Shown here one piece after another: positions 7,727 through 11,600 of a stretch of 27,946 nt of DNA (positions are counted from its first letter, which is position 1; every line of letters begins with the position of its first letter). Position numbers and translations under genes: made by a program. The notes beneath the pieces are model-generated. The model was not told where the DNA came from and made no database searches. It was given only the letters and a program-made list of their open reading frames with translations. The stretch is from a virus: the UHGV virus genome UHGV-0178950; one strand, written 5' to 3'.

Positions 7727-8560
7727 ATGAATATTACACAAGATAACTTAGATATTTTCACGGGGTCACATGTTGAAGTGTCGATCTCTAACCAGATAGA
7801 CAATCAGGTCGACTTTTTCGATCCTAGCTTTAGTTCCATCGAGAACGTTGCAGCATTTCCTACGCTAACCGAATCCACAGAGATAGAAACTCTGGAAGAG
7901 TACGATCAGGACGCTACGGGGAAACTTGCTGGTTATCGTAGACTGGAACCGACAACACTCACATTAAACCGTGTTCTTGACGATGAACATCAAGCAATGT
8001 TGATGAAAGCGGTAGAGGATAAAACACCTTTACGCTTCCGTATGTTCTATGTTGTGAACTCTGGCTATAGTGCTGCTAACACTGGTTACTATGTCATCTA
8101 TGATGCTTACGTCACATCACATAAAACCCGTGGTAGTGATAACAAAGCTGTAACACTGGAATTTAAACTTGAACCAGATGGCGGGATTCTGGCAAGGGGT
8201 ATTGCTACCGAAGGTAAGATCTTGCGTCAGGGTGATTTTGGTATCGGTGCTGGTGTACACCCATTTACAGGGGGTATAGATGACACTGCATTAGCCGGAA
8301 ACCGTTTCGTAACCTATAAGGGAACTGCTAGCGGTAATCCATATTCAACCGACACAGCATTAATTCACCTTCAAGCTAATGAGCATGGCGCATGGCAATT
8401 AACCTGTAATACTTCTGGCGCACCACGTTTACGCGTCCGAAATATTCAGGAAAACGGTCGCTCTGAATGGATCAAGGTATATTCCTCCAATGAGAAACCG
8501 ACACCTAGCGAAATTGGCGCAGTGGCTAAGACTGATAGAATCGACTTCGGTGAGTATTAA
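7727..8560 (+). CDS. Tail-tube-like structural protein (paralog of the 12299 gene) with a C-terminal extension carrying a fibre-like KPTPxEIGA box
   Basis: 277 aa; N-terminal half aligns by eye with the 158-aa protein (GKL..LTL...H..L.KA.ED.T); C-terminus NEKPTPSEIGAVAKTDRIDFGEY matches a box inside the fibre gene. Confidence 0.55.
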   Translation: MNITQDNLDIFTGSHVEVSISNQIDNQVDFFDPSFSSIENVAAFPTLTESTEIETLEEYDQDATGKLAGYRRLEPTTLTLNRVLDDEHQAMLMKAVEDKTPLRFRMFYVVNSGYSAANTGYYVIYDAYVTSHKTRGSDNKAVTLEFKLEPDGGILARGIATEGKILRQGDFGIGAGVHPFTGGIDDTALAGNRFVTYKGTASGNPYSTDTALIHLQANEHGAWQLTCNTSGAPRLRVRNIQENGRSEWIKVYSSNEKPTPSEIGAVAKTDRIDFGEY

Positions 8561-8588
8561 GATTGCTTACCTAAATAAAACATGACGC

Positions 8589-8620
8589 GGGGAGGTTAAC
8601 GCCTCCCTTATTCCTGTTTT
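8589..8620 (+). terminator. Terminator-like hairpin between the 277-aa gene and the fibre gene
   Basis: GGGAGG-ttaacg-CCTCCC followed by a T-rich run (ttattcctgtttt). Confidence 0.4.
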
Positions 8621-8638
8621 ATAGTGAGGTGATTCTAG

Positions 8639-11600
8639 ATGCGATCAATCCAATTTAAACGCACACAAACGGCTGGTAAAAAACCAACGCCGGAACAATT
8701 ATCACAGGGTGAATTGGCTATTAACCTTGCTGATCACGTTCTGTATACCAAAGATAAAAATAACGCAGTAGTTCAAATCTCTGTTTCTCCAGAAAAACAT
8801 GCTGAACTTAACACGAAAGTAGACCAGAATAAAACCAACACTGACCGTGTTATTGCTTCCAACAAACAAGAGGCCGCTAATAATCTGGCTAGTGCTAAAG
8901 CTGAACTGAATCAGACTATTACCACGAAAGATACAGCGACCAATAAGCGCATTGATGCTACCAACACCACTGTTAGTAACTTAACCCAGACAGTTACGGC
9001 AAATAAAACCGATGCCGACACTAAGATCAATAACCTTACGGGGACCGTATCTGCGAATAAGACCGCAATTGAAAGAACCGTTGCCGCAAACAAATCTGAT
9101 GCAGATAGCAAACATGCAGCTTTAACGAAAACGGTCACTGACAATAACACCGCGATTAACAACAAGGTTAATACCACTAACACCAACGTTAGCAACTTAA
9201 CTAAAACTGTTACTGCAAATAAAACCGATGCAGATAACAAAATTTCTAGCTTAACTAGCACGGTTGCAGCTAACAAGACAGCGATCGAAAAGACTGTTTC
9301 CGACAATAAGAAAGACGCGGATACTAAGATTACCAATCTTACTGGCACTGTTAATAGCAACCATACCGCAATTAACAACAAGGTAGACCAGAATAAATCT
9401 TCTACTGATGCCGCAATTGCAGCCGCTAACAAACGAATTGATGGTATTGAAGGTAGCAATGATGCTCTTTACATCAAGAAGAATACCAATACTAAGCATG
9501 GTGGGTATCTGTTAAGCAAGACAGCTAACTATCTGGAAGACCAGACATCACGAGATCTTAACTACTTTGGTGCTTTCCGTACCAATGGTCAAGATGGACT
9601 CATGGATCTAACTCTTAATGTTCCTCATTCTGCCGGTAAAGCGCACGGTCGCGGATTTACTTTCCGTTATGCGTCTGGTGGATCTCGTGTTGAAACCTAT
9701 GGTTTTGATAGAGAAGGACAGAAGAACTTTAGCTATAAGATGTATCACGAAGGTGATAAGCCGACTCCTGGCGAGATTGGCGCATACACCAAAGCCGAAG
9801 TTGATAAGATGTTTGTTAAAAACGTCGTTATGTCTGTTCCCAATTCTAGCGAAAACGTATCTGCATATTTCAAATTGGCAACCGCAACAATTCCACAAAA
9901 CGGGCGTAGTGTGTTTTTCCGTATTCATGGTGGTAATGGTTACAACGTTACGGCATATGATCAGGTTGACGTAGTAGAAATTCTTCTGCGTAGTGGTAAC
10001 GATAGACCTAAAGGTCTTAACGTAATTGCATACCGTAGAAATACAAACAAAGATTTTGAGGTATTTGCTGTCAATACTTCCGGTGATAACTATGATATCT
10101 ACGTGAAATATCAGCGTTATACCGATAACGTTATTGTCGAATATGGGAAATCTGTTTATGTAAGTTTGACGGTTTATGATACGCCGGAAGCCACGTTAAT
10201 TAAACCTTCCGTTGGTGTTATCGGTGGTCGCAACGTAACTCTTTTTAATACTGAAAATAAACGTGGTGTGTTAAGTTTTGATGATAACACACAAAACAGC
10301 TATGACATTGTTCATCTAAGTAATGATAAAGGTACTGGACGGAAATATATTCGTAAATTCCGTAGCAACTATAACGAAATGGTTTGGCATGAAACCGTTC
10401 AGGGTGCTGTATATCGTCTTGCTACTGGTGCTACAGATTCTACAGAAGTTATTAGAATTGATTCTAATAGTGCAATACCGGGTAATTATAAAGGATATGT
10501 AATTACTGGTAAAATGGAATTGCACGGTAGTGGTAATGCGATGACTTTACATCGACAGACTGGTCAAGCTGCATATATGGCGTGGTGGGATCGTCGTGAT
10601 GGTAAAAACCAACGTAGTGGTTATATCGGTCATGCGGATGGTACTAGTGATGGTTTTGTGTGGCGTAATGATGTTGGTGCTAACTCATTTGATTTGGAAG
10701 GTAGTGGACAAGTAAATTTGACTACAGGAAAAACAAAAATTGTATATACCAATGGTCAATATTATTCCGCTAACGCTGATGCATTCCGTATGATTTACGG
10801 TAAGTATGGTGCATTCTGGCGAAATGATGGTGGTAAAGTTTATCTGTTGTCTACTGCCGAAAATGATAGATTTGGTGGTTGGAATACATATCGACCTTTT
10901 ATCTACGATCTTACTTCCGGTAACGTTCAATTAGGTGGTGATGGAAACGAAGATGTATTAACTCTAGAACGCGCAAGCAAGGCCGCTCGATTCTCTGGCA
11001 ACGCTTACATCAAAGGTCAACATTTAACATTTGATGCTGGTGCTGGACAATCCCGCGATTACTTCCGGTTTAACCATTGGGGCGATAGTAATAACGCTCG
11101 CGATAACATCCTACAGATTGAAGACAGTCAGGGTGCACACTTTACCACTGAACGCGCTATGGGTACTGGCAATATCACAGCACGTTTTAAAGGCTTTGTG
11201 CGTGTAGAATCCGGTGAGATTGCCTTTGATGCTAATCGTGGATCTGCGTCTCAATTTACCTTACATACATGGGGTAACGAGCAACGCAAACAGGTTTTTG
11301 AATGTAAGGATGCTACTAGTTATCATTGGTATACCGAACGTACAAACGGTGGAACTGGTCCTATCCTGTTCTCTGTTGCTGGTACATTAAAAACTGCGAG
11401 CAATATACAGGTTGGCGGTGCTGATATTGAGTTTCGTCGCAGTGGTAATAAGCATTTATGGTTTAGAGATCCGAACGGTTTAGAATTAGGTTTGATGTAC
11501 TGCGATGATGCTGGTGTTATCCGCTTCCGTGGTCAGAAACAAGGTCAAACTTGGAAACTTGCTGATAAAATGATTCATCTTGAGGCGGGGACTGTCGGCG

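Follow-up and report, generated by a model that had tools for sequence, protein, structure and literature searches.

The distal half of the long tail fiber of bacteriophage T4 is built by gp36 trimers that bind the N-terminal region of gp37 (PMC3004832), giving a distal rod of the composition (gp36)3-(gp37)3. In phage T5 the duplicated tube protein p140 forms a single ring that carries the side-fiber anchor (PMC10038345), and in Ur-lambda 12 N-domains of Stf form a collar that leads to four trimers via flexible linkers (PMC12617516). Here we describe a locus in the virus genome UHGV-0178950, a stretch of 27,946 nucleotides (the window). In this locus the gene for a 277-residue protein, a tail tube paralogue fused to a short fiber stub with a gp36-type C-terminus (7727..8560), lies immediately upstream of the gene for a 1200-residue side fiber that is homologous to gp37, the long tail fiber distal subunit (8639..12241). 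The two proteins share a short peptide box, KPTPxEIGA. These two genes and their parts, and the tube and adhesin genes described below, are on the plus strand.

The closest described counterpart of the 277-residue protein is T4-type gp36, in particular that of phage RB49. The C-terminal 66 residues, with the box and the terminal IDFGxx among them, align end to end, the gene stands directly before a fiber gene with a gp37-type N-terminus, and long members of the family pass the Pfam model of gp36. However, a complete tail tube domain stands in place of the N-terminal part of gp36 (MADLKxGSTxGG), with which gp36 meets the gp35 knee, the gene order is lambda-like, and no homologue of gp34 or gp35 was seen among the window proteins scanned with Pfam and PHROG. 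As in the case of T5 p140, a diverged duplicate of the tube protein would serve as a specialized ring for a side-fiber anchor. The anchor in T5 is nevertheless a separate dodecamer of Ig-like p132 around the ring, for the pb1 fibers, and p140 has no fiber-like extension, whereas here a gp36-type anchor is fused to the tube paralogue, the gene of which lies upstream of the tube gene and not in the tip cluster. Lambda Stf meets the same problem, that of placing trimeric side fibers on the six-fold tail of a lambda-order siphovirus, but does so with its own N-terminal domain as a collar around the gpV/gpM junction. The window fiber is of the gp37 type and has a separate tube-paralogue partner. 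No family match suggests a collar-type anchor such as T5 p132 or lambda Stf, although no direct structural comparison was made. In the limited library available, the only literature found on side fibers rooted on tube proteins concerned the collars of T5, DT57C, and lambda. No paper found there described the fusion of a tube paralogue with a stub of gp36 type, which is no proof of novelty.

The 277-Residue Protein

The 277-residue protein's N-terminal domain (residues 1-160, 7727..8206) has the tail tube fold and matches phrog_158. Its residues 1-152 are co-linear with the 158-residue protein encoded at 12299..12775 (29% identity, E 6e-16), which matches the same family with an E-value of 1e-21, showing that the two are paralogues. 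By gene position the bulk tube subunit is the 158-residue protein. It is annotated as tail tube protein in relatives, where its gene stands directly before two small open reading frames (ORFs), presumed to encode chaperones, and then a long tape-measure-type gene. The 158-residue gene is the canonical tube gene, and the 277-residue protein would be a minor paralogue. Identity as a tail terminator was considered; it is disfavored by the best structural and sequence matches, which are to tube proteins, and by the direct paralogy with the tube gene. A PDB sequence search with the 277-residue protein yielded nothing useful. Homologues (82 of 275-281 residues, plus longer variants) occur on bacterial chromosomes (E. 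coli, Shigella, Salmonella, Providencia, Edwardsiella, and Proteus); viral contigs, about 35-45 kb in length, encode homologues as well. This tube-stub family is widespread in enterobacterial prophages and metagenomes.

The tube domain is followed by a Gly-rich linker and a fiber-like C-domain (residues 161-256, 8207..8494) that are conserved across the family. The last strands of this region align with the C-terminal domain of RB49 gp36 and with a knob of the window fiber. Next come the box KPTPSEIGAV (box 1, residues 257-266, 8495..8523), in which Pro-258 and Ala-265 are invariant and Thr-259 nearly invariant in the family, and the 11-residue C-terminal tail AKTDRIDFGEY (residues 267-277, 8525..8557), the proposed docking end, in which Asp-273 and Gly-275 are invariant.

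The C-termini of the 277-residue protein (VYSSNEKPTPSEIGAVAKTDRIDFGEY), RB49 gp36 (LYHEGNKPTPADVGAVPLNAVIDFGTF), a 698-residue protein of phage DCP80 (VFSPLNRPTAANAGVMVLLGDVIDFGLE), and T4 gp36 (FFSQNPASQPSHVPRFDQIVIKDSVQDFGYY), each given up to the stop codon, line up with one another. Endings similar to IDFGEY are NAVIDFGTF in RB49 gp36, SVQDFGYY in T4 gp36, and DVIDFGLE in the DCP80 protein. In an hhalign comparison the final 66 residues of the C-domain profile and of RB49 gp36 aligned end to end, with a probability of 88.7 and an E-value of 2.5e-6, and hmmsearch with the box/tail profile found RB49 gp36 with i-E 2.3e-10 over profile positions 5-72. The 277-residue protein has the gp36-type end, that is, the box, 6-9 residues, and [IVQ]DFG-x-[YF] directly before the stop codon. 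We searched a profile of 72 columns that comprises the last strands, the box, and the tail (profile A3) against 1.84 billion cluster representatives. A tube-like N-domain was present in 13 of the top matches (342-1209 residues), 12 of which end in the box, x(6-9), and [ILF]D[FLAE]Gxx. Two long relatives, P0090 (1209 residues) and P0098 (1204 residues), pass PF03903 (Phage_T4_gp36) with 28.8 and 32 bits at a cut-off of 26.

Pairing of Stub and Fiber Genes

In every lineage examined, the protein that ends in box-x(6-9)-D[FLAE]Gxx at the stop codon has a gp37-type fiber gene 43-82 nt downstream. Fiber starts were recognized by the pattern ..FKR..G-x-[KR]-P....GE[LI]-x-[IV]N..D..[IL][YF], a gp37 N-terminal motif that is also written as IQFKR..GEL.IN..D. 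The pairing holds for the window, DCP80, a metagenomic locus (L004), the gp36-gp37 pairs of RB49 and T4, and all 45 of the IMG/VR loci examined, which represent 25 distinct combinations of stub tail and fiber start. In a prospective test, the next gene after that of P0090 (locus L062), which ends in NKPTAAAISAVAINDTFDEGTF before the stop codon, was found to encode a 490-residue S74 fiber. The start of this fiber, MANIKPQLQLFRTTVAGRQPTAAQIKEGQLAVNLTDKKLYTK, is a variant (..LFRT..AGRQP....GQLAVN..) that was recognized by eye and not by the pattern. The most divergent E. coli match (L061), examined as a candidate relative lacking one or both partners, has both stub and fiber. Stub tail types and fiber N-terminus types vary together between lineages. 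Among the loci related to the window, the 277-residue gene, the spacer, and fiber codons 1-52 are inherited as one block, always co-linear, and similarity breaks at 8795-8834.

The Side Fiber and Its Adhesin

The 1200-residue fiber matches phrog_1699 with an E-value of 1e-149. In BLASTP alignments its residues 1-51 are 47% identical to residues 4-54 of RB49 gp37, and its residues 290-1197 have 75% amino acid identity to residues 71-977. As judged by these alignments, the fiber is a complete gp37 homologue with a 237-residue NKT-rich stalk inserted behind the N-terminal anchor. The anchor (residues 1-52, 8639..8794) is homologous to the gp37 N-termini of RB49 and T4. The stalk (residues 53-289, 8795..9505), absent from RB49 gp37, consists of diverged repeats of ∼71 residues (..NLT.TVTANKTDAD.KI..LT.TV.ANKTAIE.TV..) that give internal repeat high-scoring segment pairs; TRF detected no tandem repeat there at the DNA level. 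Relatives differ by one stalk repeat (an indel from 8922 to 9234). The first knob of the gp37 body (residues 290-373, 9506..9757), a domain that was aligned in six fibers, begins where similarity to Krischvirus starts and runs up to the second copy of the box, KPTPGEIGAY (box 2, residues 374-383, 9758..9786). The fiber also carries a Gp34_trimer domain and a C-terminal Peptidase_S74 chaperone.

A gp38-like adhesin of 168 residues (Pfam Gp38_N, E 3.9e-15; phrog_1121, tail fiber adhesin) is encoded at 12950..13456 and completes the fiber cassette, its gene being separated from the fiber gene by the tail tube gene. The cassette hence has the N-terminal anchor, body, S74 chaperone, and gp38-type companion adhesin of a gp37-type fiber. 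Among eight annotated E. coli relatives, only those with fibers closest to that of the window (L011-L013) have a 168-residue ORF in the adhesin position; it is annotated "receptor recognizing protein Gp38" in L013 and hypothetical in L011 and L012. L007, the fiber of which is a distant gp37 homologue, has no adhesin ORF there and carries three small ORFs between the fiber and tube genes.

Positions 9506-12172, the distal three quarters of the fiber gene, have about 80% DNA identity to gp37 of the virulent T4-like Krischvirus (RB49, JSE, and Phi1), and no other part of window positions 1-24000 matches these phages. Such a distribution indicates horizontal transfer of a fiber body, with a virulent myovirus lineage on one side and a temperate prophage of lambda-like gene order on the other. 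The 78-nt spacer between the 277-residue and fiber genes contains a terminator-like hairpin with a weak T-tail (GGGGAGGTTAACGCCTCCCT, 8589-8608), which could set the ratio of the two gene products.

The Box Shared by Stub and Fiber

The box had been noticed in a sequence-only reading of the window, which reported that 8495-8523 and 9758-9786 agree at 23 of 29 nt, their products being KPTPSEIGAV and KPTPGEIGAY. We confirmed this observation and found both copies to be in frame. The best 29-nt register has 24 identities (8491 versus 9754), above the maxima of 19-22 obtained with 60 codon-shuffled versions of both genes, and KPTP.[DE][ILV]GA has no further occurrence in the six frames of the window. 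Beyond the box, DNA identity drops at once to background, with 74/186 matches in the extended register. Three of the eight codons for identical residues in the two boxes differ synonymously, so that the nucleotide match is best ascribed to selection on the peptide and not to recent DNA exchange. Protein similarity between the 277-residue protein and the fiber extends further than the box, over 42 residues in BLASTP (E 3e-4) and over 46 columns in a profile-profile comparison of the C-domain with the fiber knob (E 5.8e-5). The box 2 region (fiber residues 357-386) matches the box profile with i-E 0.004.

The same reading had placed a third copy at the fiber N-terminus (KKPTPEQLSQGELAIN, 8678-8725). 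This segment scores i-E 570 against the box profile, and its KPTP was rejected as a third box; it lies within the fiber anchor and belongs to the gp37-type N-terminal anchor motif. Other gp37-type N-termini conserve G-x-[KR]-P alone at this position, the corresponding segments being GRRPDAG in RB49, GTRPAAS in T4, GYIPKAA in DCP80, and GRKPTGL or GKVPLAS in others. KKPTPEQL is kept within the E. coli prophage family.

With profile A3, 621 cluster representatives were matched at E ≤ 1e-3. The top-ranking ones are proteins of 800-2700 residues with 4-11 separate matched stretches each, most of which span profile positions 18-64 and hence comprise strands and box but exclude the tail. In the 149 top proteins we counted 507 strict boxes, with 3-4 as the usual number per protein; P0083 has about nine in series, e.g. 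WNKIYHTGNKPTAADIGA. RB49 gp34, gp36, and gp37 carry the box. Its assignment in T4 gp34 and gp36 comes from matching of the pattern and from hhalign, which gave weak alignments (E 0.014 for gp34 and 0.0044 for gp36). The counterpart of box 2 is KPTPSELNV in RB49 gp37 and KPSPSELNV in L007, and box 2 is missing from relatives with other distal fiber modules. The consensus of the last strand before and with the box is [W/F]-x-K-[V/I]-[Y/W]-[H/T/S]-x-x-[N/E]-[K/R]-P-T-x-x-[D/E]-[I/V]-G-A. None of the Pfam, NCBIfam, or PHROG models matched here describes the box, NCBIfam and Pfam hold no model that covers the box or the 277-residue protein C-domain, and a full-text search found no paper on the downstream motif GDTMTG.

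The only structural context for the box is provided by T4 gp34 (PDB 5NXF/5NXH), the similarity of which to the window proteins is weak at the hhalign E-value given above. In gp34 the box, GNPPQPSDIGA (residues 1241-1250), lies directly behind the trimeric P5 β-prism knob (residues 1146-1238); it starts three residues past the prism and opens a short β-helical cap at a fiber-fiber joint, that of gp34 with gp35 and not with gp37. By analogy, the box would be the site where the chain leaves a trimeric β-prism knob and enters the next thin segment.

The profile data identify the box as the conserved and very common end-piece of a widespread β-rich knob module of fibers. As a module terminator it marks the boundaries of modules. 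By itself it does not constitute an attachment signal, since it is generic and is repeated up to 11 times within single fiber proteins. The earlier idea of a common attachment motif is thus retained for box 1 in combination with its 11-residue tail, which together form a gp36-type C-terminus that always precedes a gp37-type fiber, but not for the box alone. For annotation, the box offers a cheap sequence marker of fiber-module ends, as most of the long fiber proteins found have several copies.

A Proposed Root for the Side Fiber

We propose, with a probability of about 0.65, that box 1 and the tail on the tube paralogue constitute a gp36-type socket that holds the T4-type side fiber of the prophage. 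As a minor paralogue of the tube protein, the 277-residue protein would be built into the tail tube as one ring or a small number of rings. The C-domains would project from the ring on the Gly-rich linker, and sets of three would join to give short stubs. Box 2 closes the first knob of the gp37 body, and box 1 closes the single knob of the stub; box 1 and the 11-residue tail ending in IDFGEY together copy the C-terminal end of gp36. The fiber anchor (residues 1-52) would then dock end to end onto each stub, as gp37 does onto gp36, and the docked fiber would carry the gp38-like adhesin at its tip.

These relationships suggest that the root of the side fiber is a tail tube paralogue. We give roughly even odds to the more general proposition that, in a siphovirus tail, a ring of tube paralogues carries T4-type distal half-fibers via an end-to-end joint of the gp36/gp37 type. 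If true, side fibers would have a third mode of attachment in addition to the collars of T5 p132 and lambda Stf. The tube-stub proteins, of 277 to 1209 residues, are a modular family, which would range from a bare socket to a complete proximal half-fiber fused to a tube domain. A socket of 11-21 residues and a plug of 52 residues would likewise be a minimal, tractable model of the gp36-gp37 joint of T4-type fibers; no structure of this joint was found. A gp36-type tail paired with a gp37-type N-terminus may serve to point out the "hypothetical protein" that roots the side fiber in a common prophage family of E. coli, Salmonella, and Shigella.

The homologies, the domain architecture, and the gene adjacency, together with their conservation, are direct observations. 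Several points weigh against the proposed socket. We infer from sequence the presence of the 277-residue protein in the virion, its ring formation, trimerization, and docking contact, its position in the tail, and its stoichiometry, and the passage from a hexameric ring to trimeric stubs requires an assumed adaptation of symmetry. In the AF2 monomer model, pLDDT values of the C-domain are below 50. PF03903 matches neither the 277-residue protein nor its C-domain. T4 gp36 matches the C-domain profile weakly by hhalign and, like T4 gp34, goes undetected by the HMM box profile in hmmsearch. The adjacency of the two genes confounds any argument from co-inheritance or co-variation of stub tails and fiber N-termini. 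Finally, neither gp36 nor the N-terminus of gp37 has a solved structure in the PDB copy searched, leaving the docking geometry without a T4 template; PDB sequence searches with RB49 gp36, T4 gp36, and the T4 gp37 N-terminus gave nothing useful.

Alternative Explanations and Recombination Breakpoints

The 277-residue protein might be a plain tail tube protein with a decorative C-domain, like the Ig-like domain of lambda gpV, in which case the fiber would be attached elsewhere and the box would be a reused fold. The tube fold of the N-domain and the generic nature of the box fit such an interpretation, and C-terminal decorations are common; T5 pb6 has an Ig-like domain, and the L004 counterpart of the 158-residue tube protein has a C-terminal region that looks Ig-like by eye. 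We nevertheless consider this interpretation unlikely given the presence of a second, canonical tube gene directly before two presumed chaperone ORFs and the match of the C-terminus to gp36 from end to end, terminal DFGxx included. In addition, the long relatives hold a true gp36 domain, and the gene is always directly upstream of a fiber with a gp37 N-terminus, also in distant lineages. A chance resemblance of a few codons, without biological meaning, could be entertained from the fact that only 9-10 residues are near-identical and that the DNA around them is at background identity. It is extremely improbable, as codon shuffles never attain the observed score, the motif is conserved in the 277-residue family and in hundreds of fiber proteins, and the profile-profile similarity spans 46-66 columns.

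The sequence-only reading had also raised the possibility that the box is a recombination joint for the swapping of fiber modules. Such a joint would be a short conserved motif of DNA and protein that mediates exchange by homologous recombination, like the conserved motifs described for adhesin swapping in the T-even phages. Differences by whole box-ended modules among stub proteins of 277 to 1204-1209 residues would agree with this, as would P0091, in which the domain found behind box 2 also follows a box while the upstream module seems different by eye. To locate breakpoints, we aligned 56 related loci to window positions 7000-13500, which gave 161 internal alignment ends. None of these lies within 40 nt of box 2, and the single end near box 1 is a contig end, so that neither box has a genuine breakpoint. 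The ends cluster instead at 8795-8834, where the fiber N-terminal anchor ends, in the stalk repeats (8919-8922, 9027, and 9234), in the distal receptor-binding third of the fiber, and at the flanks of the tube gene. The DNA junction with Krischvirus gp37 is at 9506, 252 nt upstream of box 2, and not at 9758. Moreover, the identity between the boxes is confined to 29 nt with synonymous differences, and efficient homologous exchange would require a longer and less diverged match. Mosaic breakpoints do not coincide with the motif, and a role of the box as a recombination joint is accordingly quite improbable. Boxes and module boundaries do coincide over deep time, even though the boxes are not DNA crossover points in the prophage family. 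Whole modules ending in boxes have been gained or lost on this time scale, as seen in stub proteins of 277, 446-485, 583, 698, and 1204-1209 residues, and in the longer variants the added modules stand between box 1 and the terminal tail. For host-range engineering, the end of the conserved anchor at about fiber codon 52 and the breakpoint clusters indicate the sites of natural exchange.

Prophage Context and Other Features

The genes of the window make up the structural module of a prophage of enterobacteria, arranged in lambda-like order. Large terminase, portal, a fused protease-capsid protein, and two small ORFs are followed by the 277-residue protein and the fiber, and then by the 158-residue tail tube protein, the gp38-like adhesin, two small ORFs, an 810-residue ORF, and further ORFs. 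The two small ORFs behind the adhesin are presumed to encode tail assembly chaperones, the 810-residue ORF is by its position presumed to be the tape measure, and the ORFs beyond it are presumed to be tip proteins. The host virus of the 277-residue gene is presumably a siphovirus-type prophage and not a myovirus. A prophage in E. coli PI7 (NZ_CP074033) shows 96.8% identity to window positions 7000-13500. Family scans gave no assignment for the ORFs of 96 and 156 residues upstream of the 277-residue gene. Within the 156-residue ORF, ARAGORN predicted a 91-nt tRNA-Glu on the minus strand (7482-7572), which is probably a false positive.

The capsid and 158-residue tube genes both end in an in-frame TGA, in the contexts GAA TGA ACT AGC and GGA TGA ACT AAC, respectively. 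Behind each TGA is a homologous open extension of 40-42 codons in the same frame (6827-6985 and 12773-12930), followed by the same terminator-like hairpin. The extensions contain the motifs ..PSEPSPD..IP..EE..VTAKATAKKQRKTKE and ..PLPESEPLPEHE..VTAKATAKRGRKAKN and differ from each other by indels of 9 and 12 nt. Relatives show 23 distinct variants in which the TGA, the ACT, and the extension are retained while amino acids vary. No suppressor tRNA is present in the window. From its sequence features, this arrangement looks like programmed UGA read-through that would give C-terminally extended capsid and tube proteins.

The record of phage DCP80 (PQ671644, L002), which contains the 698-residue tube-stub protein, is 141 kb long and labelled Straboviridae/Tevenvirinae. 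Its first 21 kb (1-21560) are a structural module of lambda gene order that includes the tube-stub gene and is syntenic with the prophage family of the window. A misclassification or a chimeric assembly is possible for this record.

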